Assembly: GCA_964582295.1 (NCBI GenBank)
Contig: CAZOQP010000002.1
Location: forward strand, 8,563 to 72,562
Length of the DNA: 64,000 nucleotides
Source: an uncultured Candidatus Saccharibacteria bacterium
Lineage (GTDB): Bacteria > Patescibacteriota > Minisyncoccia > Phycocordibacterales > Zambryskibacteraceae
Direction: 5' to 3'
Positions 164 through 45,289 of this stretch are shown in pieces. Numbering within the stretch: the stretch's first letter is position 1; each line of letters starts with the position of its first letter. Both the position numbers and the translations under genes were made by a program. The notes beneath the pieces were generated by a model that was not told the DNA's origin, searched no databases, and was given only the letters and a program-made list of their open reading frames with translations.

Positions 164-841
164 CTACAAGAGGGAGCGAAGTTGGACTTTGAGAGCTTCC
201 AAAGGAACTGCGCCGCTTAGCGGTATCTTCTGACCCTTTGGGCCGATAATTATAGAGTAGGGAGTGCCTGTACCACCTGCCGCAACTGCACTTTGGTAAT
301 CGCTCTCCACTCGCGCCGCTGTTCTGCCGCTTGTGGTGCATTCAATGAAATCTGTGCGGGAAATTCCGGCAGCTTCCGCCATTGAAGGAAGAAGTGTTAG
401 GTCTAAAGTATCATTTGATTTTGTAGTAGCGTAAAGATTATTGGTCATCTCCCAGAAAGCGTCGTTGCCGCCGAGAAGTGCCGCGCATTCAAGTGCCTCT
501 GCTTCAGTGCGGGCTTTTTTGTGGAGACTATCAAGAGGGAAATGGCGGTAAACCCACCTCACTTTACCGCTGAATTCTTTGTCTGCTGTAATACTTAAAA
601 GAGTGGAGTGAAAAACTTTGCAGAATGGGCATTCTGTATCTGAATATTCAATGATAGTAACGGCGGCATTGGCAGGCCCCACAGTGTGGTCGTTTTCATC
701 AACTGCTTTCACTGTTATCTCTTTAGGTACGGGTATTTTTTCGGCAGAGGTATTTACAGGTGTTTTAGAAAGATACAGGCCGCCTCCGATGAAAGCTCCC
801 GCAACGATTATAGACCCTGCAAGCACTAGTGTGTTTTTCAT
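164..841 (-). CDS. DsbA-like thiol:disulfide oxidoreductase (thioredoxin fold), N-terminal membrane anchor
   Basis: CPFC (CxxC) active-site motif in a thioredoxin-like context (..YSDTECPFCKVFH..). Hydrophobic N-terminus MKNTLVLAGSIIVAGAFIGGGLY. Confidence 0.75.
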   Translation of the reverse strand: MKNTLVLAGSIIVAGAFIGGGLYLSKTPVNTSAEKIPVPKEITVKAVDENDHTVGPANAAVTIIEYSDTECPFCKVFHSTLLSITADKEFSGKVRWVYRHFPLDSLHKKARTEAEALECAALLGGNDAFWEMTNNLYATTKSNDTLDLTLLPSMAEAAGISRTDFIECTTSGRTAARVESDYQSAVAAGGTGTPYSIIIGPKGQKIPLSGAVPLEALKVQLRSLL

Positions 842-17463: not shown

Positions 17464-17502
17464 ATTTTAATCTAATTTTTAACAGGGTTAAAAAATTAAT
17501 AG

Positions 17503-17574
17503 CTCCCCGGGTAGGATTCGAACCTACGACCAATCGCTTAACAGGCGACTGCGCTACCGCTGCGCCACCGGGGA
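17503..17574 (-). tRNA. tRNA-Asn (anticodon GTT)
   Basis: Cloverleaf folds by hand. Acceptor stem TCCCCGG/CCGGGGA, D-arm GCGC-AGCGGTA-GCGC, anticodon loop CTGTTAA, T-arm GTAGG-TTCGAAT-CCTAC, discriminator G. Confidence 0.85.
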
Positions 17575-18806: not shown

Positions 18807-19274
18807 TCCTATTTTCAATTGAACTCTCTCCTCTTTGCTCAATCTACTCTCCATTAGCTCGGCCGCAGTTTGAGCGAGCTCCGGGTTCCTTGCAATGACA
18901 GCTGCAAAGCGGATTTCAGCCCAACCTCTTTGGAGTTTGCACGTGAAGTAAAAGATGAGGGTTTCTTTATGCTCTGAAGGCAGTACTTCCTCAGGCAACC
19001 GCCCGACTTCCTCCATGAGAATATGTACACCCTCGAGAGCAGTTGCAAGTAGTGGTGGATGCATATTCGCAATTACTTGCTCAAACACGAGGTTGAGACT
19101 GAGCAGGTGTTTCCGATGACGCGGATCTGCCAGGTTCTTCCAAGCTTCAAGCGCTCTGATCAGATCTTCTGAGTCGCGGTTTACCACTCCATGCCTCCGT
19201 CGGCAAAAAGTGAATGTTCGGTTCCTTGAATGTTGTAGCACCCTTTCTCTCAAATCACAACTACATAACTCCAC
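18804..19274 (-). CDS. hypothetical protein (156 aa)
   Basis: Intact ORF starting 14 nt inside the 3' end of fmt. No recognisable motif. Confidence 0.35.
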   Translation of the reverse strand: MELCSCDLRERVLQHSRNRTFTFCRRRHGVVNRDSEDLIRALEAWKNLADPRHRKHLLSLNLVFEQVIANMHPPLLATALEGVHILMEEVGRLPEEVLPSEHKETLIFYFTCKLQRGWAEIRFAAVIARNPELAQTAAELMESRLSKEERVQLKIG

Positions 19275-20109
19275 GCAAAAAGTCCTGCCACGACATTTCT
19301 TTGCGCCCTTCGGGTGTTACGCGGTCTAAAACCAGCACCCCTTCTTTTATATGGGCTTCTTTTATTTTCACCCGCACCTTGCCGTTCTTGGTGCTGTGGA
19401 AAAAATATGCCCCAGGCCATTTTTCAAAGGCGTGTATCTTTCGCAGATTTTTTATCGGCCCGTCATTCATATCCATCTCCGCATCTTCCTTTGATATTTT
19501 TTTTGTGAAAGTGGCGAGGGTGTGATCCTGCGTTTGGGCTTTGATATTTTCATCCATCCAATCGGGAATAACGGATGCGAGAAGTTTTCCGCCTTCACTC
19601 CCTAAAATTTTCTCTGCCTCCGTGTATGCGGGCGGCTCGTCTCCAAAAACAACCGCCTTTTGAGCAAGAATGGGGCCATGATCCATTTCCTCGTCTATCA
19701 AAATTATACTAACCCCCGGTTTTTCTCCGGAAAGGATAGTGCATTGTATAGGGGCCGGCCCGCGCAGTTTCGGTAAAAGAGACGGATGCACGTTCAGGGT
19801 GCCTCGGGTGGGAATATCAAATACTTCCCTGGGAATTATTTTTCCGTATGAAGCTACAACGCCAAGTTGTGGGTTATAAGCTTTAAGTTGCAATACAAAA
19901 TCCGTATCCAATTTCTGCGGCTGAAGCACCGGGATATTGTGTTTGCCAGCCCACACTTTTGCAGGCGGGGGAGTGATGGTGAGGCCGCGCCCCTGCGGAT
20001 TATCCTCGGCACAAACTATCACCACAGGAACGAAGCCCCCTTTTTCAAGTTCATTCAAAACAGGAATAGCTATTGCATCCGATCCAAAAAAAGCAAAACG
20101 TACACTCAT
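19261..20109 (-). CDS. fmt: methionyl-tRNA formyltransferase
   Basis: N-terminal MSVRFAFFGSDAIAIPVLNEL and the GTLNVHPSLLPKLRG formyltransferase motif. Start at MSVRF, which overlaps the def stop by ATGA. Confidence 0.85.
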   Translation of the reverse strand: MSVRFAFFGSDAIAIPVLNELEKGGFVPVVIVCAEDNPQGRGLTITPPPAKVWAGKHNIPVLQPQKLDTDFVLQLKAYNPQLGVVASYGKIIPREVFDIPTRGTLNVHPSLLPKLRGPAPIQCTILSGEKPGVSIILIDEEMDHGPILAQKAVVFGDEPPAYTEAEKILGSEGGKLLASVIPDWMDENIKAQTQDHTLATFTKKISKEDAEMDMNDGPIKNLRKIHAFEKWPGAYFFHSTKNGKVRVKIKEAHIKEGVLVLDRVTPEGRKEMSWQDFLRGVM

Positions 20110-20645
20110 CGCTTTTTGCTTTTTACCGGAACGGGTTTCCACTCATGAAGGTCCGAGGCCTTGTCGGTGAAAAGCACTCCGTCCAAATGGTCACTCTCAT
20201 GCTGAAATATTTGTGCCACCAGGCCGGAAGCCCCGCGGCTGAATTTTTTACCTTTTTCGTCATATGCTTCCAGTTCCACTTTGTCCGAGCGTTTCACTTT
20301 TCCGTAAAGCCAGCGCACCGAAAGACACCCCTCTTCCATGGCTTTTTTAATACGTGAGCTTCTTAGGATCTTGGGATTTATGAAAACTTCGTCCGGATAT
20401 TGCGATTTCGCTTCATCTTCATTCGCAAGAATAGCCCTTACCCGTCCGGAAACCACGAAGATACGCAGAGGCACACCTATTTGGGGCGCGGCAATGGCTA
20501 CTCCGTCGCTTTCACCCTCCAGTGCTTTTTTCATATCTTTAAGTATCTTTTGTATGCGAGAAGAGGGAATTTCCTTCACGGAAACAGGCTCCGCCTTCTG
20601 GCGGAGTACGAGGGTCTCTTCCTCCTGAAAAATCCTGGCAGGCAT
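20106..20645 (-). CDS. def: peptide deformylase
   Basis: PDF motifs GVAIAAPQIG, EGCLSV and HESDHLDG. def-fmt gene order. Confidence 0.85.
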   Translation of the reverse strand: MPARIFQEEETLVLRQKAEPVSVKEIPSSRIQKILKDMKKALEGESDGVAIAAPQIGVPLRIFVVSGRVRAILANEDEAKSQYPDEVFINPKILRSSRIKKAMEEGCLSVRWLYGKVKRSDKVELEAYDEKGKKFSRGASGLVAQIFQHESDHLDGVLFTDKASDLHEWKPVPVKSKKR

Positions 20646-20685: not shown

Positions 20686-22566
20686 TTACAAAAGATCTTC
20701 AGGATCCACGGAAACGGCGAATTGCGGAGGCAGGGACATGAGGCGCATTACTGTGGTTTTGTCCGGCCATTCATTTGGCACTTCTATTTTTATAAGCCCG
20801 TGAAAACGATGCAAGCGCCCGCCTGCTCTCACTTTCACAATGTGCACCGTTTCGCCGAAAAGTTCCCGCACCAGTTCACTGTCTTTGGCGGCACGCGAAG
20901 GGCTGCCTTCCCATGCAATTTTTATGAAAAGGGAAAAAGGCGGGAATGCGAATTTTCTTCTTTCATCTATCTCACGCTCAAAGAATGGCAGAAAATTCCC
21001 TTCGGCCGCTGCAGAGAAAACAGGGTTCTCCGGACTCCTTGTTTGGAATATCACTTTCTCTCTACCCAGTGCACGAATGCTTGTAAGGATTGAAAGCAGT
21101 CTTTCATTCACACGAAAATCAGGCATTCCGATAAGCGAATCTGCAGAAACGACCGCCGCTACTTCAACAGGGCTTCTCACATAACGCAAAGCCATCTCGG
21201 TGCCGATAAGGATACCTCCGCGAGTATGTAAAAAATCATCTGCTGTGCGCATGGCTTTTGCTGGTGTAGGGGCGGCATCTTTATTCAGGTGGAAAATGAA
21301 AGGGTGGGGAATAATACGGCGGAGCTCCTTTTCAATAGTTTCAACTCCAATTCCCAAAGTGGCAAGCCGCCAGCCACCGCAATGCGAACACTCGTCTTTT
21401 GCTGGGCGTTTTTCACCGCACTTGTGGCAAAGAAAAAAATGATTGGCGCTCTCGTGAAGCACTAGTGGAGCTCCGCATACCGGGCAGGAGACGACCATTT
21501 CGCAATCACTGCACACAGTGAGAGGTGCCAAGCCTTTGCGGGCGCCAAAAAGGAAAACCCTTTTCCCGGCTTCAACTGCAGAAATAATAGTGCGCTCCAA
21601 ACGGTTAGAGAATATTTTGAAGCCCTCCTCGTCACCCTCTTGCCTTACCATGGAAGAAATGGAAACATCGGCGGTAGTGGGGGAGCGCATGTTCATGTGG
21701 CCCCATTCGTTGTATTCGTTCTCTTTTACTTTGTACAAAGTCTCAACACGCAGTATCTCGCTTCCGTAAATGATGCGGGCGCAATATTCATGTGCGAGCA
21801 TTTTTGCGAATGCCCGAAAATCTAAGAAAGGACGCGAAAGAGTGTTGTATGCGCGTGAGTTCTCTCTTTCGCAGAGAACTGTTTCGGTGTCCTCGCGCAT
21901 AAGGCAAAGGTAGGGAGGAGTGGCGATGATGAGGGCGGGGTGAGTTGGGTCATCCACTATCTTCAGGCGTTTGGTGAGTTCCTTTGCATTGCGAGGCGCT
22001 GGGAAAACAACAGTGAATTCCTCAATGCCGCGCGAAAGCTCTTTGTATGCGTATTCCGCATCCTCGGCCGTCGGTACCAGAAAAAAGAATGAGCGCTTGC
22101 GGGCGAAAGTTTCGCGTATAAGAGAGCGGTATTCAGCAAAGCGCTCCTCCGAGCCTGCCTGGAATGCGCTTACGTCTGCAACAAGCGTGCATTTGGGTTC
22201 AATGGGAACGACATTTCTTTTTGCTTCAAGGACTGCTTGAGGCAAAAGAACACTCAAGATGCTTGCAGTGCTTTGAGCGGAGTATTCCGAAAATGCGTCA
22301 GCCGCACGCAGGAAGGCGCGGCTGACGCACATCTTTCCTGCTGCTCCCGTGATTTTTTTAAGTGCAAAAGGGCCGGAGCGTATTTCCATGCGGGCTTTTT
22401 CCGCAGGATGGGTTTCCACTACCAGAGCCCTTACTGTTCTTGCGCGCAGAGGCACCTTCACGATAGTACCCGGCTCTATATCCGTGCCTGAAAAATAAGT
22501 AAGGGTTTCCGCGCCGGCACCTTTGGCGAAAGTTCTTGTGAGTGGTAATACGGAGACTGTGAACAT
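20686..22566 (-). CDS. priA: primosomal protein N' (PriA) homologue with degenerate helicase ATPase motifs
   Basis: PriA-type N-terminus (VSVLPL...LTYFSGTDIEPGTIVKVPLRARTVRALVVE) and the Cys-rich zinc region CSDCEMVVSCPVCG...CHKCGEKRP...CSHCGG. The positions where GxGKT and DExH are expected read GSEERFAEY and LMREDTE instead. Confidence 0.7.
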   Translation of the reverse strand: MFTVSVLPLTRTFAKGAGAETLTYFSGTDIEPGTIVKVPLRARTVRALVVETHPAEKARMEIRSGPFALKKITGAAGKMCVSRAFLRAADAFSEYSAQSTASILSVLLPQAVLEAKRNVVPIEPKCTLVADVSAFQAGSEERFAEYRSLIRETFARKRSFFFLVPTAEDAEYAYKELSRGIEEFTVVFPAPRNAKELTKRLKIVDDPTHPALIIATPPYLCLMREDTETVLCERENSRAYNTLSRPFLDFRAFAKMLAHEYCARIIYGSEILRVETLYKVKENEYNEWGHMNMRSPTTADVSISSMVRQEGDEEGFKIFSNRLERTIISAVEAGKRVFLFGARKGLAPLTVCSDCEMVVSCPVCGAPLVLHESANHFFLCHKCGEKRPAKDECSHCGGWRLATLGIGVETIEKELRRIIPHPFIFHLNKDAAPTPAKAMRTADDFLHTRGGILIGTEMALRYVRSPVEVAAVVSADSLIGMPDFRVNERLLSILTSIRALGREKVIFQTRSPENPVFSAAAEGNFLPFFEREIDERRKFAFPPFSLFIKIAWEGSPSRAAKDSELVRELFGETVHIVKVRAGGRLHRFHGLIKIEVPNEWPDKTTVMRLMSLPPQFAVSVDPEDLL

Positions 22567-22668: not shown

Positions 22669-23682
22669 ATGGCCTTTTTTACCAAAAAACTAGGTATTGA
22701 TCTCGGCACTACGAGCGTTCTTGTGTATGTGCCGGGAAAGGGGATTATCTTGAATGAACCGTCTGTTGTGGCCGTGTCTGAAGAGGACAGGAAAATTTTG
22801 GCGATAGGTGCGGAGGCAAAAAAAATGATAGGCAAGACGCCTGAAAACATCATTGCTTATCGCCCGATGAAAGACGGAGTCATTGCGGATTATCGTGTGA
22901 CGGAAGCCATGCTCCGATATTTTATCGGCAAAGCTCTCGGTAAATTTTCATTCATAAAGCCGGATGTTTTGATATCCGTTCCCGCTGGTGTTACCTCAAC
23001 TGAAAGGCGGGCTGTCATTGAAGCGGCTGTGAAAGCGGGGGCAAAGAACGCATATGTTGTGAAAGAGCCGATCCTTGCGGCTATCGGCGCAGGTATTCCC
23101 ATTCAGGAGCCGTCGGGCCAAATGATAGTTGATATTGGCGGAGGGACGACCGACGTGGCGGTTATTTCGCTCGGCGGCATCGTGGCTTCTACGTCGGTTA
23201 AGTGTGCTGGCAATAAGATAGATGCAGCTATCACCGACCATATGAAGAAAACTTATAATCTGGCGATTGGTGATCGCACGGCGGAAAATATAAAAATAAA
23301 TATCGGCTCTGCTGTGCCGGTGGAGGAGGAACTTTCAATGCAGGTGAAAGGAAGGGATTACGTTTCGGGTTTGCCCCGCTCGGTTGAAGTGAAAACAAAT
23401 GAGGTGGTGAAGGCCATTGGGAAAGAGCTTCGCGATATGGTGAAAGCTATAAAGGATGTGCTGCAGGAAACTCCGCCAGAACTCGCTTCAGACATTATTG
23501 ATAAAGGAATAGTTATGACAGGCGGCACTTCCCAGCTTCGCCATTTGCCCGAACTCGTTTTTCGCCGCACCGGAGTGAAAGCGGTGATGGCAAAGGATGC
23601 TTTGTATTGTGTGGTGAATGGGACGGGTATAGCACTAGAGCATTTGGATGCTTATAAGAAGGCGGTGATTTCTAAAAGATAA
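22669..23682 (+). CDS. actin-like rod-shape protein, MreB family (paralogue 1, 337 aa)
   Basis: LGIDLGTTSVLVYV, NEPSVVAV, DIGGGTTDVAVISLGGIV motifs. Confidence 0.8.
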   Translation: MAFFTKKLGIDLGTTSVLVYVPGKGIILNEPSVVAVSEEDRKILAIGAEAKKMIGKTPENIIAYRPMKDGVIADYRVTEAMLRYFIGKALGKFSFIKPDVLISVPAGVTSTERRAVIEAAVKAGAKNAYVVKEPILAAIGAGIPIQEPSGQMIVDIGGGTTDVAVISLGGIVASTSVKCAGNKIDAAITDHMKKTYNLAIGDRTAENIKINIGSAVPVEEELSMQVKGRDYVSGLPRSVEVKTNEVVKAIGKELRDMVKAIKDVLQETPPELASDIIDKGIVMTGGTSQLRHLPELVFRRTGVKAVMAKDALYCVVNGTGIALEHLDAYKKAVISKR

Positions 23683-23856: not shown

Positions 23857-24558
23857 GTGGGTGAGAACTTAAAAATATTAGAGGTGTTAAATGCTGGGCT
23901 TCATTCGCCACGCTCTTATTTGGTAAGGGGAGAAGAGGGGGTGGCTTTGGCAGTGCTTGCGGATGCCATACAGAATTCTTGGGGGATAACTTTTGCGGGG
24001 AACCCAAACATTTCTTTTTTCCGCGGAGTGGTTGGGGTAGATGAAGCGCGGGAACTTACAGATATCGCCGGCCGCTCCGCTTTTGGTGAAGATAGTCTGA
24101 GTATCATTTTTCTTGCTGCATCGCGGCTCACACATGAAGCCCAGAATGCTCTTTTGAAGATAACAGAGGAACCTAAATCATCACTTCGTATGTTTGTGGT
24201 GGTTGATAACGATGTAGAGCTTTTGCCGACACTTCTTTCGCGCCTTGAAGATATTACAGACGCGTTTGGACACCGGGTGTCCAAAACGGGAAATGCAGAG
24301 GCGGAGAAATTTGTTTCTTCAGGACTCAAGGAGCGTTTGAAAGTGGCAGAAAAAATAGCTAAAGATGAGGAGACTCATGTGTTTGAAGAATTCTTAAGGA
24401 ATATTGAAAAATTTGTGTGGCACTCCAAGTTTAAACACGAAGGGGAGCGGAAAACTGCCTTGAATGCCGTTGCCTTTGCAAAAAAACAGGCATCCTTTCA
24501 AAGTCGTCCCAAAAGGATGGTTCTTGAGGCCCTCGCCATTTCCTTGCCAGTGTTGTAA
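23857..24558 (+). CDS. DNA polymerase III clamp-loader delta-prime-like subunit (HolB-like, no Walker A)
   Basis: ALLKITEEP sensor motif typical of clamp-loader subunits, 233 aa, no P-loop. Confidence 0.5.
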   Translation: MGENLKILEVLNAGLHSPRSYLVRGEEGVALAVLADAIQNSWGITFAGNPNISFFRGVVGVDEARELTDIAGRSAFGEDSLSIIFLAASRLTHEAQNALLKITEEPKSSLRMFVVVDNDVELLPTLLSRLEDITDAFGHRVSKTGNAEAEKFVSSGLKERLKVAEKIAKDEETHVFEEFLRNIEKFVWHSKFKHEGERKTALNAVAFAKKQASFQSRPKRMVLEALAISLPVL

Positions 24559-28185: not shown

Positions 28186-29259
28186 ATGGCAGAACGGAAG
28201 AAATTGACGCTTAGGGAAAGAATAAGGCGGTCGCTCTCAAACGACATCGGTATTGACCTTGGGACAGCGAACACGCTGGTCTTCGTGAAAGGTCGCGGAG
28301 TCGTTATCAACGAGCCGTCGGTGGTTGCTATCAACCAGAAAACCGGAGCGGTGGTGGCGGTAGGGAAGGAAGCACGTGACATGCTTGGCCGCACGCCCGG
28401 ACACATTATCGCTGTAAGGCCGGTCGTTGATGGTGTGATATCGGACTTTGAAGTAACAGAGGAAATGATCTCCTATCTTCTTTCGCGGGCGCAGGAAGGA
28501 CACAGGAAAATGCTCGGGCCGCGCGTGGTAGTTGGGGTGCCGTCGGGTATTACGAATGTGGAGATAAGGGCCGTTCGCGATGCTTGCCAGAACGCAGGGG
28601 CTAGCGAAGTGCATATCGTGGAAGAACCAATGGCGGCGGCTATCGGCATGCGCTTACCAGTGAAAGAGCCGGTCGGAAGCATGGTGATAGATATAGGCGG
28701 AGGTACTACGGACATCGCCGTCATTTCTCTTTCAGGTATCGTGCGTGCAAAAAATATACGTCTTGCGGGAGATGCTTTCAATGAGAACATCGCATCTTAT
28801 GTGCGGAATGAATTCAAAATATTAGTAGGAGAAAAAACGGCGGAGGAAGTGAAAATGTCTATCGGCTCGGTGCTTCCGGATGGGGAGTCGGCTGAAGCAG
28901 TGGTAAGAGGGAGGGATTTGGTGACCGGTTTACCGAGAGAGGTTGCTGTGACGGATGCGGATATCCGCGAGGCCATCGGTATTTCAGTCGGCAGCATAAT
29001 AGAAGGTGCGCGGGAAGTTTTGGAAACCACTCCGCCTGAAATTCTTTCGGACATCATGCACAGGGGAGTGTATCTTGCGGGCGGCGGTGCTATCTTCAAA
29101 GGATTGCCGGAACTTTTAGAGCATGAATTGAAGATACCGGTTCATGTGCCGCCTGACCCTCTGCTTGCAGTAGTTCGTGGCACCGCCGCCATCCTTGACG
29201 ATATTGATTACTGGAAAGATATTTTAATCGTCAACGAAGATGATATATCGGCCTCATAA
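28186..29259 (+). CDS. mreB: rod shape-determining protein MreB (paralogue 2, heads the mreBCD-mrdA operon)
   Basis: IGIDLGTANTLVFV, NEPSVVAI, DIGGGTTDIAVISLSGIV motifs. Followed by mreC. Confidence 0.9.
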   Translation: MAERKKLTLRERIRRSLSNDIGIDLGTANTLVFVKGRGVVINEPSVVAINQKTGAVVAVGKEARDMLGRTPGHIIAVRPVVDGVISDFEVTEEMISYLLSRAQEGHRKMLGPRVVVGVPSGITNVEIRAVRDACQNAGASEVHIVEEPMAAAIGMRLPVKEPVGSMVIDIGGGTTDIAVISLSGIVRAKNIRLAGDAFNENIASYVRNEFKILVGEKTAEEVKMSIGSVLPDGESAEAVVRGRDLVTGLPREVAVTDADIREAIGISVGSIIEGAREVLETTPPEILSDIMHRGVYLAGGGAIFKGLPELLEHELKIPVHVPPDPLLAVVRGTAAILDDIDYWKDILIVNEDDISAS

Positions 29260-30001
29260 AAACAGAAAAAATACTCCGAACTTCAGAGTGGTAATCGTTC
29301 TGGTGGTTGCTCTTTGCTTGGGGTTTATTCCGTTCATCCGCAATTTAGTTATAACAGCTTACGCACATAGCGCCTGGTTCGTGCGGGAATTCACGGTCCA
29401 TACTTTAGAAAAAGTCGCTTATCCGTGGAGGGAGGACAAGTCAAATACAGAGGATGAACCCCGTCAGGAAGTGGAGAGCGCGGAGCTCTCCTTGCTTAGA
29501 AAAGAGAATGAAGACCTGAAGGAGCTTCTTGGCCGCAAACCGACAGGGGCGGCTGTCCTCAGCCGTGTGCTCCTGAAGCCGCCCCAGGCCCCCTACGATG
29601 AGCTAGTGCTTGATGTGGGGCAGGATGAGGGGGTGGCCGATGGTGCGGAGCTTTACGACAAAAGCGGGGCTATCGTCGGAGTTGTTACATCAGCTGCGGA
29701 TTCCTTTTCTAGGGCACGCCTTTTCACCTCTCCCGGCGAAACTATAGAGGCAGAGCTTCTCTCAAGCGGCATCGTACTTCCTCTTTTAGGGTATGGCGAC
29801 GGAACATTCAAAGTGGAAGTGCCACGCGGGTTCGCAGTATCCGTCGGAGATGTGTTTGTGCTCCCCGGTCTCAAGAGCCATCCGCTCGCAAGTGTTGCAA
29901 GTATTGAAGAAGAGACTGGCGGCTCTTTCAAAACAATTTTTGCTCGTGGTGTTTTTGAACCCCGCCGCCTCACTTGGGTTTTTGTAGAGACGAAAAAATA
30001 A
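29240..30001 (+). CDS. mreC: rod shape-determining protein MreC
   Basis: N-terminal TM, coiled-coil LLRKENEDLKELL, then the PYDELVLDVG beta domain. Operon position after mreB. Confidence 0.75.
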   Translation: MIYRPHKNRKNTPNFRVVIVLVVALCLGFIPFIRNLVITAYAHSAWFVREFTVHTLEKVAYPWREDKSNTEDEPRQEVESAELSLLRKENEDLKELLGRKPTGAAVLSRVLLKPPQAPYDELVLDVGQDEGVADGAELYDKSGAIVGVVTSAADSFSRARLFTSPGETIEAELLSSGIVLPLLGYGDGTFKVEVPRGFAVSVGDVFVLPGLKSHPLASVASIEEETGGSFKTIFARGVFEPRRLTWVFVETKK

Positions 30002-30005
30002 AGAT

Positions 30006-30257
30006 ATGAGAAAAAATTATTGGTTGCGGGGTATTATTTTTGCGGGAGTTTTAATACTTTCTTTTTTCGTACCGTGGCAGCTGACGGCTCTTTTAGTAAT
30101 TCTCGCTTCTCTTGCTGTGCCATACCCACTAGAATACGCGATTATCACTATAGGGGTGTTTGGCATCGGCTTGTTATTCTATTTATTCTTGACGACGGCT
30201 CTTTTGGGCGGCTTCGTGAGGTCTCGTACTCGTATCGGAAGTCTCTTGCCGCTATAA
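30006..30257 (+). CDS. mreD: putative MreD (small polytopic membrane protein)
   Basis: 83 aa, fully hydrophobic, sitting between mreC and mrdA. Confidence 0.45.
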   Translation: MRKNYWLRGIIFAGVLILSFFVPWQLTALLVILASLAVPYPLEYAIITIGVFGIGLLFYLFLTTALLGGFVRSRTRIGSLLPL

Positions 30258-30265
30258 TTGCGGGC

Positions 30266-32002
30266 ATGAGGTTTTCCTTCAAAAATTTATTCAAAAAGCG
30301 TGGTCCCGGCCACGAAATTGCTCCGGAAGAAATATTGGCGGACGCTTCAAACCTCATCCATACAGACACCGGTAACATGGAGGGACACCTTATTCTTCCT
30401 ATAGAAAGGTCCTCATACGTTCTCCTTGTTGCTGTTCTTGTGTTTTTGACCCTCTTTGCGACAGTGCGCCTTTTTAATCTTCAGGTAGTGCGCGGGCAGG
30501 AGCTCGCTAAAAGGAGCGCCACCAACTCTTTGGATAAAACGATTGTCTTTGCGAACCGCGGGCTTATTTTTGACAGAACAGGTGAAGTGGTGGCAGGAAA
30601 TGCACCAGCTCAAAGATGGAGTGAAAGAAAATATTTGCCTCTCCCCGGTCTTTCGGTTATGGTCGGATATGTGGGATATCCGAAATCAGATTCAAGCGGC
30701 AATTTATACGACACAGCACTTGCCGGACGCGATGGGCTTGAAGAATATTTTGATGATGTACTTGCCGGAAGGAACGGCACTCTCATACGCGAAACAAATG
30801 CTTTGGGGGAGCTTGTTTCTGAAAGCACTGTGGAGAATCCGCGTGATGGGGTGAACATTACTCTCTCAATAGATGCGAAAGTTACCAGCCAGCTTTTCAC
30901 AGAACTCAAGGCACTTGCGGAGGAAAGAGGGTACGCGGGCGGAGCTGGTATTGTGATTGATATAGAGACCGGAGAAGTACTCGCTCTCACTTCATATCCT
31001 GAATACGACCACCAGGTGATGGTAGATGGAAAAGATAACAATGCCATTTCGGCATTTCTCGGGAATAAGAATAATCCTTTCCTTGACCGTGCATCCCAGG
31101 GTCTTTACATCCCGGGTTCTATCATGAAGCCCTACATGGCAGTAGGTGCGCTTGAGGAGAATATTGTTGATCCGCTTAAAAATTTCATGGCGAACGGAGA
31201 GATACGTGTTCCTAATCCTTATGATCCTAAGAACCCGACTATTTTCAAAGACTGGAAAGTGCACGGAATGGTTGATATGCGGAGGGCGCTTGCTGTTTCT
31301 TCAAACGTTTATTTTTTCACAATTGGTGCCGGCTATGAGGGGCAGAGGGGATTAGGTATTTCCAAGATAGAAGAATATATGCGCATGTTCGGATTCGGAG
31401 AAAAAACTGGTATTGAAATAGATGGAGAGGAAGAGGGTAACGTGCCGAGCCCCGAATGGAAGGAGGAAACTTTTCCGGATGATACTACCTGGCGCCTCGG
31501 AGATACTTACAATAGTTCTATCGGGCAATACGGATTTTCGATAACACCCATTCAGGCCGTACGGGCGACAGCGGCCCTCGCGAACGGCGGGTTTTTAGTG
31601 ACACCTACTCTTATAAAAGATGACGAGCAAAATCAGGATCTCCAAAAAGTGCTTTCCCAAAAAGGGGTGGAGTTAAAAAGAGAAAAAGAAACTGTTCCTG
31701 TGGCCCGTGAAAATATTCGCATAGTGCAGGAGGGAATGAGAAAGGCCGTGCTTGAGGGAACCGCTTCCGGATTGAATATTCCTGCCGTCGCCGTGGCCGC
31801 CAAGACGGGTACTGCAGAGCTTGGTGTTACCAAGCAGGCCGTCAACTCATGGGTTATGGGATATTTCCCTTATCAAAATCCGCGTTATGCATTTGCTATT
31901 GCCATGGAAAAGGGGAGCCGCTCAAACACTGTGGGTGCCACTTATGCCATGCGCCGCCTTCTTGAATGGATGGCTATTTATGCGCCGGAATATTTAAAAT
32001 AA
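30266..32002 (+). CDS. mrdA: penicillin-binding protein 2 (class B transpeptidase)
   Basis: SxxK (GSIMKP), SxN (SSNVYF) and KTGTA motifs. Start at MRFSF (30266); the longer ORF from 30020 overlaps mreD out of frame. Confidence 0.85.
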   Translation: MRFSFKNLFKKRGPGHEIAPEEILADASNLIHTDTGNMEGHLILPIERSSYVLLVAVLVFLTLFATVRLFNLQVVRGQELAKRSATNSLDKTIVFANRGLIFDRTGEVVAGNAPAQRWSERKYLPLPGLSVMVGYVGYPKSDSSGNLYDTALAGRDGLEEYFDDVLAGRNGTLIRETNALGELVSESTVENPRDGVNITLSIDAKVTSQLFTELKALAEERGYAGGAGIVIDIETGEVLALTSYPEYDHQVMVDGKDNNAISAFLGNKNNPFLDRASQGLYIPGSIMKPYMAVGALEENIVDPLKNFMANGEIRVPNPYDPKNPTIFKDWKVHGMVDMRRALAVSSNVYFFTIGAGYEGQRGLGISKIEEYMRMFGFGEKTGIEIDGEEEGNVPSPEWKEETFPDDTTWRLGDTYNSSIGQYGFSITPIQAVRATAALANGGFLVTPTLIKDDEQNQDLQKVLSQKGVELKREKETVPVARENIRIVQEGMRKAVLEGTASGLNIPAVAVAAKTGTAELGVTKQAVNSWVMGYFPYQNPRYAFAIAMEKGSRSNTVGATYAMRRLLEWMAIYAPEYLK

Positions 32003-36584: not shown

Positions 36585-38297
36585 ATGCTTTCGTACAAAG
36601 GAAGGATAAGACTCTTTTCTATCCTAATTTTCTGCTTCGCTCTGCTTTTGATAGGCCGTCTTTACATCGTCCAGATCGTGAACGGAAGTGATTTTCTATC
36701 GCAGGCGGACAGGCAGTATGTGCGCTCCACTTACGATTATTATGATCGCGGTTCCATATTTTTTGAGACCAAGGATGGCGATATTGTTTCTGCCGCCACT
36801 CTCAAGAGCGGTTTTATTTTGACCGTTCACCCCGATGAAGCGGGAGATGCCACTGCGACATGCCTGGTTTTGGAAGGTATTGTTTCCTTGGATCGTACGG
36901 AATGCATTTCAAAAGTTTCTAAAAAAGGCGACCCGGAGGAACGCCTGGCGAACCGTCTTAACAAAGATACCGCAGATAAAATAAGCGCTTTAGGTCTGCC
37001 TGGCATTCACTTGGTTCAGGAGCGCTGGCGCTTTTACCCGGGAGGGGAAGCTGCAGCCCATGCCGTGGGCTTCATCGGCTACGACAAGAACGATGATGTA
37101 TCAGGACGCTACGGCCTTGAGCGCTTTTATGAAGATACTCTCGGCCGAAACAACAAAGAGGTTTATGCGAATTTTTTCGTGGAAGTTTTCAGCGGCATTA
37201 AAAAAGTGCTTTCAAGCGAAGAAGAACTTGAGGGAGATATCGTGACGACTATAGAGCCGTCGGTTGAATCTTTCCTGGAGAAAAAACTTGGAGAAGTGCA
37301 GGCCGCATATTCATCCGATTACTCGGGCGGGATAATTATGGATCCTTATACGGGTGAGATATATGCAATGGCTATCGTCCCTACATTTGACCCGAACGAC
37401 CTGAAGAAAGAAAAGTCAGTTGATGTTTTTCAGAACAAGTTGGTGGAGAACGTTTTTGAAATGGGCTCTATCATAAAACCGCTCACCATGGCCGCGGCCC
37501 TTGATGTTGGGGCGATAACTCCTAAAACCACTTATTACGATGCCGGCTCTGTTGTTTTGGACGGTAAAAAAATATCCAACTTTGACGGCAGGGGCCGCGG
37601 CACCGCAACAATGCAGGATGTTCTCAATAATTCATTGAACACAGGGATGGTTTTTGTGATGCAGAAGATGGGCTCTAAAACATTTGCTGAATATATGAAA
37701 AATTATGGCCTGGGACAGGAAACGGGAATTGACCTGCCCAATGAAATTCACGGCCTCATTGATAACCTCAACAGCCCCCGGGAAGTTGAATATGCCACAG
37801 CCGCTTTCGGCCAAGGTATTGCCCTTACTCCTTTTGCAACTATCCGCGCCTTAGCTGCACTCGGCAATGGCGGTGTATTACCCGACCCTCATTTGGTGAA
37901 GAAAATAAATTACCGCCTGGGAGGGGGTAAAAGTGTCACTCCTAATCCGGAGAACCGGGTGTTGAAAACAGAAACATCTGAAACCATCACCGGCATGCTC
38001 GTGAAAGTGGTGGACGAAGCGCTTTTAGGAGGAAGCGTGAAGATACCAGATCATTCGGTGGCAGCAAAAACAGGTACTGCCCAAGTGGTGAAAGACGGCT
38101 CGTATTCCGAAGATCGCTATCTCCACTCTTTTTTCGGATATTTTCCGGCGTATCATCCGCGTTTTATAGTTTTTCTTTTCACTATGCATCCGAAAGGAGT
38201 TAAATATGCTTCGGAAACCCTCACTCATCCGTTTATGGATATAACCAAATTCCTGATAAACTACTACGAAATACCTCCCGATCGTGGAACCATATAA
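36585..38297 (+). CDS. ftsI: penicillin-binding protein, class B transpeptidase (FtsI/PBP3-like)
   Basis: N-terminal TM, SxxK (GSIIKP), SxN (SLNTG), KTGTAQ. dcw position. Confidence 0.85.
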   Translation: MLSYKGRIRLFSILIFCFALLLIGRLYIVQIVNGSDFLSQADRQYVRSTYDYYDRGSIFFETKDGDIVSAATLKSGFILTVHPDEAGDATATCLVLEGIVSLDRTECISKVSKKGDPEERLANRLNKDTADKISALGLPGIHLVQERWRFYPGGEAAAHAVGFIGYDKNDDVSGRYGLERFYEDTLGRNNKEVYANFFVEVFSGIKKVLSSEEELEGDIVTTIEPSVESFLEKKLGEVQAAYSSDYSGGIIMDPYTGEIYAMAIVPTFDPNDLKKEKSVDVFQNKLVENVFEMGSIIKPLTMAAALDVGAITPKTTYYDAGSVVLDGKKISNFDGRGRGTATMQDVLNNSLNTGMVFVMQKMGSKTFAEYMKNYGLGQETGIDLPNEIHGLIDNLNSPREVEYATAAFGQGIALTPFATIRALAALGNGGVLPDPHLVKKINYRLGGGKSVTPNPENRVLKTETSETITGMLVKVVDEALLGGSVKIPDHSVAAKTGTAQVVKDGSYSEDRYLHSFFGYFPAYHPRFIVFLFTMHPKGVKYASETLTHPFMDITKFLINYYEIPPDRGTI

Positions 38298-39665: not shown

Positions 39666-42600
39666 GTGATGGTTATTTGTAAACCACTTAAGAAAACACA
39701 CAAAAAGGAGCTTCACGTGCTTACTCGTTTGTATCGTCAGATGAAGGATGGCCTGGAGTACTGTTTCTATATTGAGACAGAGGAAGGGTTGTCTGCAGAA
39801 ATGTTGGAAAAGATCACCTGGCTTATCCAGGAGACGTTCGAACCATTGTCAGCTAGACCGCTATCATTTTTTGCTTCAGAAGAAAAAGTGGTGGAAATAG
39901 GTCCTCGGATTTCGATCGAAACGCCTCTCTCTTCTAACGCAGTTTCGATCTGCCGTGCAATGGGAATCCCGCAGATAACTCGTATTGAGCGTTCTCGCCG
40001 CCATGCTGTTCGTAAAAATGGGGTTGAGCCCGTTATGGACCGCATGACAGAAGAAATATACACGTGCGGGCTCGAGAACTTTGATACCGGTATTACGCCG
40101 GAAGGTGTTAGGACGATCAATGTCATGAGGCGTGGAAAAACCGCTCTTGAAGAGATCAACACTGCCCTTGGGCTCGGGATGGATGCTCACGACATTGAGT
40201 ATTACTATCGTCTCTTTTCAGAAGTTCTGAAAAGAGATCCGACCGATGTTGAACTGTTCCAACTCGGCAATGCTAACAGCGAGCACAGCCGGCACTGGTA
40301 TTTCAAGGGACAAATTGTCATTGATGGAGTAGAGATGGATCGGACTCTCATGGATATAGTCCAAAGTCCGCTCCAGAGTATGGAAAATCTAGGATGTAGT
40401 CTGGTTGCCTTCCGAGACAATGCGGGGGTCATTATTGGCCCCACACCCGTGGTGACTGTTCTTGTACCGGAAATACCCGGCAAATGTTCGGAGCTTGTAC
40501 TCCACAGGAGGATCGTGGATATCACCTGTACTGCAGAGACGCATAACCATCCGACGTTCGTTGCACCTTTTCCAGGCGCCCAAACGGGTTCCGGTGGAAG
40601 GATACGCGACAACACTGCGGTTGGTCGCGGCGGCATTACAGGGATAGGTGCTGCCGGATATTTTGTAGGCAATCTTTTCATTCCTGGATATGAAATTCCG
40701 GGAGAAGTTGTCGGCAAAGACAAGCCATCTAGATACGCTTCGCCCCTCTCTATTCTCATTGAGGGTTCAAACGGCGTATCAAGCTACGGCAACCAGTTCG
40801 GAGAACCGCTTACTTTGGGGTTCACCAGAACTTTCGGGCAGATGGTGGATGGTGAGTGGCGCGAACCACGCAAACCCATCCTCTATAGTGGCGGTGTCGG
40901 TCATTTGTTTGGCGAACACGTCACGAAGGAGGCACCTGAAGTCGGAATGCTTATCGTACGTATTGGTGGCCCCGCATATCCTATTGGGGTAGGCGGAGGC
41001 AGCGCATCAAGCATGATGCAAGGTCAAAATACCGAAGCGCTTGATTTCAATTCCGTTCAGCGTGGAAATGCTGAGATGGAAAATCGAGCTAATCGGGTTA
41101 TTCGGGCCTGTGCGGAAATGGGAAATGAAAATCCTATTTCAAGCATTCACGATCAAGGTGCGGGTGGTCCAAGCAATGTTTTGACGGAACTCATGGAGCC
41201 GCTTGGCGGTACCATAGATATCTGGAAAATCGTTCTTGGCGACAAAACGATGTCGGTACTGCAGATATGGAGTGCTGAATTCCAGGAAGGATACGGACTG
41301 CTGGTGAGGCCGGAAAATATCGGACTCTTTCAGTCAGTCTGTAAGAGAGAACGTGTCAATTGCGAAGTTCTGGGAGTCATAGATGGCGGCGGAAAAGTTG
41401 TCGTTGAAGACTCTCAAAATGGAACAAAGCCCGTCGATCTCAATCTGGAGCAAATTCTCACGAATATGCCCCGGAAAACATTCAAGACAAACTGGCGTCT
41501 GAGAGATCTCAAACCTCTGGCTCTGCCGGAAATGGGTGTGGGGGAAGCGATAGAAAAAGTTTTCAAACTCCCCTCGGTAGGTTCAAAAGGATTCCTTGTC
41601 CATAAAGTGGACAGGAGCGTGACTGGTCTTGTCGCACAGCAGCAATGCTGCGGTATTGCTCAGATCCCGATATCGAATGTGAGCATCAATGCGCAGAGTC
41701 ATTTCGATATGACTGGAGCGGCAAGTGCACTCGGCGAGCAGCCAATCAAGATGCTCATTGATCCGAAAGCTGGAGCCAGAATGGCGGTAGGAGAAATGCT
41801 TACCAATATGGCTTCCGCTAGGATAACGGATATCGTTGATATCCGTTGCCGTGCGAACTGGATGTGGCCCGCGAAGCTTCCTCACGAAGGCGCCCTCCTC
41901 TATGATGCCGCAGTTGCGATGTCCGATCTTATGATCGAACTTGGTATTGCGGTTGACGGAGGAAAGGACAGTCTTTCAATGGCCGCGGATGTATCGGGAG
42001 AAATTGTAAAAGCTCCTGGCAGTCTTGTGGTCAAGGGATACGCGCCTGTTGCTGATATCATAAAAAAGCTTACACCCGACATTAAAAAAGCGGGGCAGAG
42101 CTTGCTTGTACTGTTAGATCTCGGGCAGGGTAAAAATCGCCTTGGCGGTTCAGCCCTCGCCCAAGCATTTGATCAGCTTGGCAACGAAACACCCGATGTT
42201 GATACTCCAAGGCTCCTCAAGAATGCATTTCTTGCGGTGCAAAGGATGATAGACGAAGGATTAGTACTTGCTTTGCATGACAGAAGCGACGGGGGTCTCA
42301 TAACTGCCGTTGCCGAGATGTGTATGGCGAGCCGGTGCGGGTTTTCTCTCCGGGTATCAACTCGTGAAAATGTGCTAACGGAGTTGTTTTCCGAGGAACT
42401 GGGTTTTGTCATGGAGGTGGAGAAAGGATGTTATTCGCAACTTGAAAATGTTGCGGATGCTTTCGATCTCCAAATGACAATAATCGGCCAGACTGTGAGT
42501 AATTCGCTTTGCACTATCAGCACAGAGAAAGAATCGTTGTTCCAGAGTGTTATAACGGAACTGCGATATTGGTGGGAATCCACAAGTGCAAAAATTGAAG

Positions 42601-43547
42601 AACTCCAGATGGATCCCGGATGTGCGAAGGCAGAGTATTGCCGGCATCAAAGTCAGCTTTATCGGGATGGTAATACTGCTCCATCGTACAAGCTCACCTT
42701 TGAGCCGATATGGACTTCCCCGGAAATTCTGAATGCTTCGGATAACCCACGCGTGGCAATTGTGCGCGAGGAAGGAACGAACGGAGATAGGGAAATGTCG
42801 TCTGCTTTCAAGGCGGCAGGACTTCGTCCTTACGACATCAATATGGAAGATCTCCTGTCGGGCGACGCGAATCTGGATACATTCCAGGGCATCGTTTTTC
42901 CCGGAGGGTTCTCCTATATGGATGTATGTGACAGCGCCAAAGGCTGGGCCGGAGCCATCCGCTTCAATGACAAGCTCCGTCGAATGTTCGACCGTTTCTG
43001 TGCAAGAGAGGATACTTTCTCGCTCGGTGTGTGCAATGGTGCACAGCTCATGGCGTTACTCGGATGGGTTCCGCAGAAGGGGATTGAGGAGGAAAAACAA
43101 CCGAGATTCATTCATAATGTTTCCGGCAGGTTTGAATCCCGGTGGGCACAGGTAGAAATCCTGCCGAGCCCAGCCATCCTTTTTTCTGGGATGGAAGGGT
43201 CACGGCTCGGTGTGTGGGTGGCACATGGTGAAGGTCAACTAGTCTATCCTGATCAGTTGATCGGGGAAGAGGTGATGAAGAATAACCTTGCACCACTCGC
43301 CTACATAGACCCGCATGGTAATCCGACAGGGGAGTATCCGTACAACCCGAACGGTTCACCAGGAGGGATAACGGCACTCTGTTCGCCGGACGGCCGTCAT
43401 CTTGCGATGATGCCCCATCCGGAAAGATGTTTTCTCAAGTGGCAGTGGCCGTATATGCCACAAGAGTGGAATGATCGCCTGGAGACTTCTCCATGGCTCA
43501 AGATGTTTCAGAATGCCCGAAGTTGGGCACTGGCGCATCGGGGCTAA
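39666..43547 (+). CDS. purL: phosphoribosylformylglycinamidine synthase, single-chain large form (PurL with C-terminal glutaminase domain)
   Basis: 1293 aa. Duplicated PurM-like AIRS domains and a C-terminal class I glutamine amidotransferase region (..GVCNGAQLM.., ..HPER). Confidence 0.9.
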   Translation: MMVICKPLKKTHKKELHVLTRLYRQMKDGLEYCFYIETEEGLSAEMLEKITWLIQETFEPLSARPLSFFASEEKVVEIGPRISIETPLSSNAVSICRAMGIPQITRIERSRRHAVRKNGVEPVMDRMTEEIYTCGLENFDTGITPEGVRTINVMRRGKTALEEINTALGLGMDAHDIEYYYRLFSEVLKRDPTDVELFQLGNANSEHSRHWYFKGQIVIDGVEMDRTLMDIVQSPLQSMENLGCSLVAFRDNAGVIIGPTPVVTVLVPEIPGKCSELVLHRRIVDITCTAETHNHPTFVAPFPGAQTGSGGRIRDNTAVGRGGITGIGAAGYFVGNLFIPGYEIPGEVVGKDKPSRYASPLSILIEGSNGVSSYGNQFGEPLTLGFTRTFGQMVDGEWREPRKPILYSGGVGHLFGEHVTKEAPEVGMLIVRIGGPAYPIGVGGGSASSMMQGQNTEALDFNSVQRGNAEMENRANRVIRACAEMGNENPISSIHDQGAGGPSNVLTELMEPLGGTIDIWKIVLGDKTMSVLQIWSAEFQEGYGLLVRPENIGLFQSVCKRERVNCEVLGVIDGGGKVVVEDSQNGTKPVDLNLEQILTNMPRKTFKTNWRLRDLKPLALPEMGVGEAIEKVFKLPSVGSKGFLVHKVDRSVTGLVAQQQCCGIAQIPISNVSINAQSHFDMTGAASALGEQPIKMLIDPKAGARMAVGEMLTNMASARITDIVDIRCRANWMWPAKLPHEGALLYDAAVAMSDLMIELGIAVDGGKDSLSMAADVSGEIVKAPGSLVVKGYAPVADIIKKLTPDIKKAGQSLLVLLDLGQGKNRLGGSALAQAFDQLGNETPDVDTPRLLKNAFLAVQRMIDEGLVLALHDRSDGGLITAVAEMCMASRCGFSLRVSTRENVLTELFSEELGFVMEVEKGCYSQLENVADAFDLQMTIIGQTVSNSLCTISTEKESLFQSVITELRYWWESTSAKIEELQMDPGCAKAEYCRHQSQLYRDGNTAPSYKLTFEPIWTSPEILNASDNPRVAIVREEGTNGDREMSSAFKAAGLRPYDINMEDLLSGDANLDTFQGIVFPGGFSYMDVCDSAKGWAGAIRFNDKLRRMFDRFCAREDTFSLGVCNGAQLMALLGWVPQKGIEEEKQPRFIHNVSGRFESRWAQVEILPSPAILFSGMEGSRLGVWVAHGEGQLVYPDQLIGEEVMKNNLAPLAYIDPHGNPTGEYPYNPNGSPGGITALCSPDGRHLAMMPHPERCFLKWQWPYMPQEWNDRLETSPWLKMFQNARSWALAHRG

Positions 43548-43650: not shown

Positions 43651-44784
43651 TTAACGCACGGCGAGTGTTTCGGCGGAGAATTCCAGATTTTCCGGTCGAA
43701 TGACAACTTTCTTCACTTTACTCTTCTCAATGTAGCCAGCATGTGTAACGGCATACTCAAATCCGGCAGTCTCACGGGCAACCCTCAATACTTTTTTGAC
43801 GTCTCGTGCGGGAACATAAAGTGCAAAACCTGCTCCCATATTGAAGTTCCCGTACATCTCCCTGTTACTGATCCGCCCGCTCTTTTGAATGAATCGAAAA
43901 ATATGCAGATCTGGTGGCATCTTTTCGATTACATAAGAGAAACTCCCGGGAGCTCGCATGAGCTTTCGCCATCCGTGACCAGTTATATTCACGGCATAGT
44001 GTATGTTCACCCCTGCTGTCAGACAATTTTCAACAAGAGGAACATAGATGCGAGTGGGTTTCAGAAGCACTTCCCCGTAGGTACCCCCGTCGCTGAATGG
44101 GGTCAGATATTTCTTGGGAAGTTTTTCCGCGATCTCTCGTGCGAGAGTCAGGCCATTTGCATGAATGCCCGAACTTTCTACAAGAAGGATCGCATCACCG
44201 TCCCGAATATTTGCAGGGTTGATTAGCCGCTTTTTATCAGTGATGATCCCAACAGTTGCGCCTGCAAGGTCTGCTGTTCCGGGAACGATGATGCCCTTGA
44301 GTGTGGGTGTTTCTCCACCACCCCACACTGCGCCAGCTATATCACATGCGTTTCGAGTGCCATTGATCAGACTCTGCCCCCGGCCTTTATCATCGAACCA
44401 TTCTGATTCTCCGACGGCCAGATACTGGCCGTATATGAGTGGAGAGGCGCCAACAGTGATGAGATCGTTGAAGGCCATAGCGGCATTACATTGCGCCACA
44501 TTGTAGTAAAGAGATCTACCATGGCTTCCTTTCATCTGCATTGCCAGTTGGTAGGCATCGGCAACCAAGTTTTTGGTACCCAATCCTTCAGTGACAAAGG
44601 CAAGGTAGCCGAGCGGTGTCTCCACAACAAAGGCACTTTCTCCTCTGCTCCAAGGAAGGACAGAGCATCCAAACCGGTGTGCATGGTGATTGGTCTCAGT
44701 GGCGGCTTGTTGCGCGTCTGTTTTGAAAGGGTCCATAGAGTTGTAGTCAACTCCAGCTCCTGCATACGTCATCCTTTTTGTCAT
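43651..44784 (-). CDS. purM: phosphoribosylformylglycinamidine cyclo-ligase (AIR synthetase) PurM-like
   Basis: AIRS/PurM-family signatures (..AGAGVDY.., GGGETPTLKG, NITGHGW, EMYGNFNMGAGF). Other AIRS-family members (HypE, SelD, ThiL) are not fully excluded. Confidence 0.7.
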   Translation of the reverse strand: MTKRMTYAGAGVDYNSMDPFKTDAQQAATETNHHAHRFGCSVLPWSRGESAFVVETPLGYLAFVTEGLGTKNLVADAYQLAMQMKGSHGRSLYYNVAQCNAAMAFNDLITVGASPLIYGQYLAVGESEWFDDKGRGQSLINGTRNACDIAGAVWGGGETPTLKGIIVPGTADLAGATVGIITDKKRLINPANIRDGDAILLVESSGIHANGLTLAREIAEKLPKKYLTPFSDGGTYGEVLLKPTRIYVPLVENCLTAGVNIHYAVNITGHGWRKLMRAPGSFSYVIEKMPPDLHIFRFIQKSGRISNREMYGNFNMGAGFALYVPARDVKKVLRVARETAGFEYAVTHAGYIEKSKVKKVVIRPENLEFSAETLAVR

Positions 44785-44876
44785 TTCCGTTGCCTCTGCT
44801 TAGTATTGTGAGAAGTGCTGTTCCAGCGCCGATACTAAAGAAAAATCCCTAAAAAGCAAATTATTAAAAACAACAA

Positions 44877-44906
44877 CGCCTCGTGACCATAAGTGGTCAC
44901 GAGGCG
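44877..44906 (-). terminator. perfect 12-bp-stem hairpin overlapping the stop of the 45289-44897 gene, upstream of purM
   Basis: cgcctcgtgacc-ataagt-ggtcacgaggcg, with ttgttgttttt on the minus strand after it. Confidence 0.4.
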
Positions 44907-45289
44907 TACAAATATGGCTTGAGCGAGTACAGACCTCTTTGAAATCGTGCGGTTGAGAGGAATCGTTCATAGTACCTCTCCCATTCCGGATCGAACTCCC
45001 GGACACAGACGATGAGACCCATGGATTTTCTGATTCTCCGGAGCTCCAGATAATACTGAAGGTCAAGGAGGGTTCTTTTGGATATTCCGAAGATCCCGAA
45101 GTCGTCACATACCTCTATGAGCTTGTGTCGAACCTGCTCTGTTCTTTCTTTTCCCATACACCCTTTTTCGTAGAACTCATAGGGGAGTGCCCGAAACGGA
45201 TTGATGGGGGCATTTCCCTGCGAGGCCACGAACTTCATGATGTCGTCGGTTCGATTAGCCAGGCGCGAAGGAGTGGATGTATAAACCAC
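44897..45289 (-). CDS. hypothetical protein (130 aa)
   Basis: Intact ORF. No recognisable motif. Confidence 0.35.
   Translation of the reverse strand: MVYTSTPSRLANRTDDIMKFVASQGNAPINPFRALPYEFYEKGCMGKERTEQVRHKLIEVCDDFGIFGISKRTLLDLQYYLELRRIRKSMGLIVCVREFDPEWERYYERFLSTARFQRGLYSLKPYLYAS

Follow-up and report, generated by a model that had tools for sequence, protein, structure and literature searches.

That PriA can exist as a pseudohelicase was first described for Deinococcus-Thermus (Lopper, Boone & Morrow 2015, PMC4504706). In this group PriA matches the consensus of motifs I and II poorly, with the lysine of GKT replaced by arginine, and the PriA of D. radiodurans has no ATPase or helicase activity and binds single-stranded DNA (ssDNA), forks and the replicative helicase DnaB (PMC4504706). 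A review of 2017 considered Deinococcus the sole exception. In Escherichia coli, the PriA K230R protein (priA300) is dead as ATPase, helicase and translocase, yet primosomes are assembled and restart proceeds via PriA-PriB with near wild-type growth (PMC5778457). Here we analyzed a priA-like gene in a stretch of 64,000 nucleotides (the window) from contig CAZOQP010000002.1 of an uncultured Patescibacteria genome, assembly GCA_964582295.1. Its product lacks the motifs by which PriA binds and hydrolyzes ATP, and we assign a probability of about 0.75 to the reading that it is a PriA orthologue turned pseudohelicase, doing the helicase-independent part of the job of PriA.

By sequence, fold and neighbourhood the product of this gene is a PriA orthologue. 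The NCBIfam model TIGR00595 matches the 626-residue protein with 190.2 bits (E 5.6e-56), below its cut-off of 230.35; the query is far under every cut-off of the NF0040xx and NF0114xx models, and no NCBIfam PriA equivalog cut-off is reached. Because the family scores under these cut-offs, several homologues have been deposited as "hypothetical protein". The PRK05580 models match the query with an E-value of 1.6e-55, and those of the PRK14873 group reach at best 1.6e-16, over residues 288-571 only. PriA chains of Klebsiella and E. coli in the PDB were found by phmmer (E 1.8e-33, query residues 190-554), and the comparison of the family profile with E. coli PriA by hhalign gave a probability of 99.9% over 564 columns. 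The query shares 18-26% sequence identity with the E. coli and K. pneumoniae proteins and is shorter, 626 amino acids (aa) versus 732. As a control for the Pfam search we used E. coli PriA, which matches the models for the 3' DNA-end-binding domain (3'BD), PriA-like_WH, DEAD, ResIII, Helicase_C, Zn_ribbon_PriA and PriA_C, whereas the query matches only 3'BD, plus weakly the model of the cysteine-rich region (CRR), even at E<=10. Concerning the neighbourhood, of 80 related loci 54 have the order priA-def-fmt and 33 the longer order holB-mreB-priA-def-fmt. The window contains exactly one PriA-like gene; this count covers 64 kb, on a contig about 209 kb long.

To locate the helicase motifs, the E. 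coli priA gene was fetched and aligned with the query and its homologues by MAFFT, HMMER and hhalign. In total 372 homologues were collected, of which 268 were aligned to E. coli PriA and 120 entered the alignment used for conservation and structure. An earlier note, made from the sequence of the window alone, had put the Walker A position at G138-Y146 (GSEERFAEY), and the alignment to E. coli PriA confirmed it: opposite motif I of E. coli (G224-VTGSGKT-231) the query has either SEERF or a gap, depending on the aligner, and the Walker A lysine K230 faces E141 or a gap, since no aligner puts a lysine there. The family consensus in this segment is Q-x5-R-x3-Y-[KR]-S-x-[IV]-R-E-x-F-A, and Q136, R142, Y146, R151, E152, F154 and S159 are invariant in the 120 homologues; the family has acquired new invariant residues in its old ATP site. 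Walker B had been read in the same note as LMREDTE (residues 222-228), which proved to be misplaced by about eight residues upstream, in the loop before the strand, where it aligns to E. coli TPFKNLG. HMMER, MAFFT and hhalign agree in placing EREN at motif II, which across the family reads [DE][KRH]E[NS], with mostly lysine or arginine at the position of the catalytic glutamate. This correction leaves unchanged the conclusion that the protein contains no GKT/GKS or DExH: the patterns [AG]xxxxGK[ST], GK[ST] and DExH do not occur anywhere in the 626 residues, and no alignment revealed an intact P-loop or DExH elsewhere in the protein.

The remaining motifs tell the same story. At motif III the family has the consensus G-D-x-L, and the deletion at motif VI is present in every motif VI pattern listed for the 268 aligned homologues (see Table 1 for the corresponding positions of the query). 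The Pfam models DEAD, ResIII and Helicase_C gave no match to the query, whereas E. coli PriA matches all three. Other P-loop proteins encoded in the same window, namely DnaB, TypA and a TraG-like ATPase, retain GK[ST]. Every motif for ATP binding and hydrolysis (I, II, III and VI) is thus gone, and the protein most likely has no ATPase activity. An active helicase working through non-canonical residues appears highly improbable, even if GTEMAL, which resembles motif V and is conserved in lobe 2 together with the QTR segment, and several DNA-facing segments could be put forward in its support; four motifs were lost together, and in E. coli the K230R substitution alone abolishes ATPase, helicase and translocase activity (PMC5778457).

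The architecture of PriA, by comparison, is largely preserved. The 3'BD passes the cut-off of its Pfam model PF17764, PriA_3primeBD (24.6 bits versus 22.7), and is aligned by hhalign to E. coli residues 14-105, with E20-Y24 (ETLTY) opposite R14-Y18 (RTFDY); in this domain G33 is invariant across the family, and Y24, P39 and R41 are nearly so. In the CRR the eight cysteines (C352, C355, C361, C364, C380, C383, C393 and C396) are invariant in the 120 homologues, and the pattern of four CxxC pairs is found in 362 of the 372, even though the model Zn_ribbon_PriA (PF18319) matches the query weakly, with 16.6 bits against a cut-off of 26. Similarly, Pfam PriA_C has no significant match to the query, and the Foldseek alignment to PriA is nonetheless full length. 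The AlphaFold2 model built from the 120-sequence alignment has a predicted local distance difference test score (pLDDT) of 89.2 and a predicted template modelling score (pTM) of 0.88. Searched with Foldseek against the PDB, it finds PriA chains at ranks 1 to 9, with query TM-scores (TMq) of 0.63-0.79 and 8fak_H as the best (0.79), while the next family, Mfd, reaches a TMq of only 0.40. According to this model, both RecA-like lobes, the CRR and the C-terminal domain (CTD) are retained.

The model also suggests what happened to the ATP site. P-loop NTPases have an 8-residue loop at the connection between strand and helix; here the predicted strand 132-136 and helix 139-155 are joined by a turn of only two residues, with pLDDT >=95. 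It is conceivable that such a protein binds nucleotide without hydrolyzing it and acts as a ligand-controlled switch, considering that both RecA-like lobes and the cleft between them are kept and that positions 1 and 3 of the former motif II are acidic in most members. We regard this as distinctly improbable: in the model the phosphate-binding loop is physically gone and only the turn is left, the segment carrying the arginine finger of motif VI is deleted, and the position of the catalytic glutamate is usually occupied by lysine, arginine or histidine.

We then asked how far these losses extend. The Walker A loop is missing at the homologous site in 372 of 372 homologues and DExH is missing at motif II in 371; all 268 homologues aligned to E. 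coli PriA are without SAT and have the motif VI deletion. The sole member with DEEH at the true motif II (P0204) has still lost motifs I, III and VI, and its DEEH is either an ancestral relic or a reversion. Some homologues contain stray GK[ST] or DExH strings at non-homologous places, such as an "FAxGKS" turn after helix 1 or "E-x-H-P" before the motif Ib strand. Relatives are encoded in at least 539 GTDB species-representative genomes (one genome per species), as counted by a scan with peptide patterns drawn largely from the altered motif regions. When 1.84 billion cluster representatives were searched exhaustively with a profile, the best 150 matches were all full length and scored at least 683 bits, and the family comprises more than 150 clusters at 50% identity. 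The Pfam content of the homologues is PF17764 only, plus PF18074 in two proteins, and the names of the relatives (Paceibacterota, Parcubacteria, Taylorbacteria, Zambryskibacteria, Paceibacter, Minisyncoccia) all refer to the Patescibacteria, or candidate phyla radiation (CPR).

The former helicase lobe is under constraint like the rest of the protein. In lobe 1, 39 of 162 positions are at least 90% conserved, a level equal to that of lobe 2 and the CRR and above that of the 3'BD and the CTD. For 13 pairs of 81-96% identity, the Nei-Gojobori method gave ratios of non-synonymous to synonymous substitution rates (dN/dS) of 0.03-0.11 over the whole protein and of 0.026-0.086 for lobe 1. Purifying selection is therefore strong, and the dead lobe is not relaxed. 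The explanation by an error of sequencing or assembly, or by a gene in decay, has nothing in its favour except the missing motifs themselves, and its probability is practically nil: the open reading frame (ORF) is intact, an identical protein is found in an independent Logan assembly (run SRR6868922), the same motif state extends over 372 homologues and 539 genomes, dN/dS is low, and the other P-loop genes of the window are normal.

The earlier note had proposed a maintained, ATPase-dead scaffold rather than a decaying pseudogene, and this is supported by the 372 homologues, the full length of the family members, dN/dS, the conservation of lobe 1 and the predicted structure. The checks it had suggested gave concordant answers, as the relatives share the same losses and show no canonical motifs, and the structure prediction retains RecA-like lobes matching solved PriA. 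Its identification of a PriA homologue with the 3'BD and eight CRR cysteines was borne out by Pfam, NCBIfam, phmmer and hhalign, while its statement that the zinc-binding and DNA-binding regions are intact holds for the eight cysteines and the 3'BD but not for the winged-helix (WH) domain, to which we return below. The note did not take into account that pseudohelicases of PriA had been described before.

Canonical PriA was absent from the best matches of our homology searches, one of them seeded with the family member most similar to E. coli PriA (P0153), and of the profile search, that is, from the nearest 372 proteins; the family is large enough to fill the lists of top hits, and its boundary with canonical PriA lies beyond the matches listed. 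A search of metagenome contigs for an intermediate peptide, in which an intact GKT precedes the helix typical of the family (GKT-xx-Y[KR]S..RE), gave five chance matches and no PriA. These results bear on another explanation, namely that the gene encodes a neofunctionalized PriA paralogue with a job other than restart and that a canonical PriA is encoded elsewhere in the genome. Such a paralogue could well score under every NCBIfam PriA equivalog cut-off, miss the WH domain and fill its former ATP site with new invariant residues, and the inspected region is 64 kb of the contig. It is nevertheless unlikely, given that the position next to def and fmt is occupied in those 54 of 80 related loci, that the PriA-specific 3'BD, CRR and CTD are kept with a full-length structural match, that the genomes with this gene are small (one complete chromosome that carries it, OY970290.1, measures 682 kb), and that no canonical PriA is included in the nearest 372 proteins.

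Returning to the reading of the protein as a PriA pseudohelicase, binding of forks and recruitment of DnaB would most likely be its functions, by analogy with the PriA proteins described so far. The 3'BD and the surfaces of the lobes and the CRR would recognize abandoned forks or D-loops; the protein would hold the lagging-strand template, and it would serve as a platform by which DnaB is brought back onto DNA, directly or through a loader such as DciA. If this PriA cannot unwind, it would therefore act only on ssDNA lagging arms, or on arms that another helicase has cleared first. The presumed client is the DnaB encoded in the window 31 kb from priA, whose Walker A (ARPSVGKT) is intact, and a partnership between the two may be presumed from the binding of DnaB by D. 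radiodurans PriA (PMC4504706). Restart without the helicase activity of PriA, for example by direct loading of DnaB, as the earlier note had supposed, would follow logically and has experimental precedents in the PriA of D. radiodurans (PMC4504706) and in E. coli priA300 (PMC5778457).

Several observations weigh against this reading. According to recent work, the CRR of E. coli PriA swings up and lets PriB in only once PriA has unwound a duplex lagging arm (PMC13594977), so that a dead PriA implies either narrower substrates or a helper helicase, and no helper helicase could be identified in the 64-kb window. Among the ORFs scanned in the window we did not see PriB, DnaT, DnaD, DnaI or DciA, nor did we detect any dciA, dnaC or dnaI-like loader gene; to our knowledge, PriB and DnaT are not expected in this lineage. 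The position of E. coli D17 in the 3'BD is T23 here and is not conserved, and recognition of the 3' end may differ. Finally, the WH domain is absent: PF21213 has no match to the query at E<=10, whereas it scores 105.6 bits on E. coli PriA. In the hhalign alignment E. coli residues ~110-226 face a gap, and about 15 linker residues stand instead of the WH domain. This linker is the least conserved segment of the protein, and longer homologues have low-complexity insertions in it and no WH fold.

We also propose, as a tentative idea to which we give less credence than to its negation, that the helicase was lost from PriA anciently, throughout the class or more widely in Paceibacteria/Minisyncoccia, and that the emptied ATP site (Q136, R142, Y146, R151-E152, F154 and the [DE][KR]E triad) was re-used as an interaction surface that could load DnaB directly, without PriB, DnaT, DnaD or unwinding of the fork. 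This might represent a pared-down form of restart for tiny episymbiont genomes.

The coordinates of the gene, of the parts of its product and of the associated genes are reported in Table 1.

Table 1. Position in the window of the priA-like gene, of the segments encoding its domains and former motifs, and of associated genes
Feature	Coordinates	Strand	Description
priA-like gene, probable PriA pseudohelicase	20686..22566	-	626 aa; uninterrupted ORF
3' DNA-end-binding domain (3'BD), residues 1-115	22222..22566	-	Pfam PF17764, residues 21-109
Variable linker, residues 116-130	22177..22221	-	Stands at the position of the E. coli winged-helix domain
Former helicase lobe 1, RecA-like, residues 131-292	21691..22176	-	Alternating strand/helix in the model, high pLDDT
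Former Walker A region, Q136-S159	22090..22161	-	P-loop replaced by predicted 2-residue turn (A137-G138), then conserved helix
Former motif II / Walker B, E233-R234-E235-N236	21859..21870	-	Opposite E. coli D320-E321-E322-H323
Former motif III, S269-E270-I271	21754..21762	-	Opposite E. coli S-A-T
Former helicase lobe 2, residues 293-545, including the CRR insertion	20932..21690	-	phmmer and hhalign matches to PriA
Cysteine-rich region (CRR), residues 350-400	21367..21519	-	Four CxxC pairs, two predicted zinc sites
Former motif VI region, T495-E503	21058..21084	-	5-residue deletion opposite E. coli QVAGRAGR
C-terminal domain (CTD), residues 546-626 and stop codon	20686..20931	-	hhalign extends to E. 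coli residue 697
def, peptide deformylase	20106..20645	-	Immediately downstream of priA; PF01327
fmt, methionyl-tRNA formyltransferase	19261..20142	-	Downstream of def; PF00551, PF02911
dnaB, replicative helicase, presumed PriA client	53674..55062	-	DnaB_C 319.7 bits and DnaB N-terminal domain

Upstream of priA and divergent from it lies an mreB paralogue (22669..23682, +), and a second mreB (28186..29259, +) is followed by mreC. The elongasome loci of the window are 22669..23682, 28186..29259, 29240..30001, 30020..32002 and 36585..38297; with two MreB, mreC and two PBP2-type transpeptidases they make up a full rod-shape/elongasome set in a genome of the Patescibacteria type. A holB-like gene for the delta' subunit of DNA polymerase III (23857..24558, +), likewise upstream of priA and divergent from it, encodes a protein with no Walker A, which is normal for delta'. 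At about 22.6 kb, where priA and mreB diverge, gene orientation changes from mostly minus to mostly plus and the GC skew from about zero to positive. We considered a replication origin at this place and rejected it, as there is no cluster of DnaA boxes; the site is probably not an origin. Concerning the presumed client, recR comes directly after dnaB (53042..55062, -), with an RmuC-family gene nearby (51113..52156, +).

Other features of the window were also recorded. A single-chain large PurL (phosphoribosylformylglycinamidine, or FGAM, synthase, 1293 aa) is encoded at 39666..43547 (+), convergent with a PurM-like gene of the AIRS family (43651..44784, -). This lineage is generally described as being without de novo nucleotide synthesis, and genes of purine biosynthesis are hence unexpected. 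The segment 15749..18237 has a GC content of 0.378 against about 0.47 for the window, adjoins a tRNA-Asn gene (17502..17574, -) and contains two small NUDIX ORFs and an ASCH-domain ORF; it may be a small acquired islet. At 44785..50107 we found 2.6 kb of small unassigned ORFs with a tRNA-Glu gene (46225..46297, -), and then a gene for a TraG/VirD4-like P-loop ATPase of 915 aa (47360..50107, +), which together may be what is left of a conjugative element or of one for type IV secretion. A VKOR homologue beside a DsbA-like thioredoxin (59750..60178, -, and 60182..60856, -) and a second DsbA-like gene (164..841, -) look like an extracytoplasmic disulfide-bond system. The ORFs of an M23 peptidase (61446..62927, -) and of a Glu/Gln-tRNA synthetase-like protein (62732..63898, -) overlap by about 200 bp, and the GTG at which the peptidase ORF is listed to start probably lies too far upstream.

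Our literature search on PriA in Patescibacteria/CPR returned no paper describing a helicase-dead PriA for this lineage. Among PriA proteins the family constitutes a second exception, far larger and more radical than the first, in ultra-small and mostly uncultured Patescibacteria. It lends support to the view that what makes PriA indispensable is the recognition of forks and the nucleation of the primosome, not unwinding. It also offers structural biologists a naturally minimal PriA, with no WH domain and, as its sequence predicts, no ATPase, in which to study restart that needs no helicase. A dedicated profile would better annotate the lineage, whose members fall under the NCBIfam cut-offs and are often named "hypothetical protein".

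When known systems are compared, the PriA structures of E. coli and K. pneumoniae (8FAK, 4NL4, 6DGD; TMq 0.64-0.79) are alike in having the 3'BD, two RecA-like lobes, the CRR with four CxxC pairs inserted in lobe 2, and the CTD, while the query is without motifs I, II, III and VI and without the WH domain. Its domain composition is the same as that of the E. coli PriA with deleted WH domain (6DCR), the second-best structural match (TMq 0.70); this is, however, an engineered construct with intact helicase motifs. In UniProt, the entries for PriA of mycobacteria and other actinobacteria reportedly carry a caution that helicase domains are not detectable; if this is right, the actinobacteria would be one more natural lineage of PriA pseudohelicases, which would then have arisen at least three times. 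Our literature search on PriA in Actinobacteria gave nothing relevant, and the query is not a member of the actinobacterial group (PRK14873), whose models match it much more weakly than PRK05580.

The priA300 mutant proves genetically that PriA can in principle work as a scaffold only, but it is a point mutant made in the laboratory and needs PriB, and the natural protein described here has lost far more. The best functional analogue is the PriA of Deinococcus-Thermus, which is, like this family, a PriA orthologue with motifs I and II degenerate throughout the lineage. Going by the text of the Deinococcus-Thermus paper, the two differ in that here the loop is gone instead of having its lysine changed to arginine; the loss of motif III, the deletion at motif VI and the absence of a WH domain come in addition. 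The loss in Patescibacteria/Minisyncoccota most likely occurred independently of that in Deinococcus, the lineages being unrelated. On this reading the family is a second case of a PriA pseudohelicase after Deinococcus, in an unrelated phylum, and the more extreme of the two.

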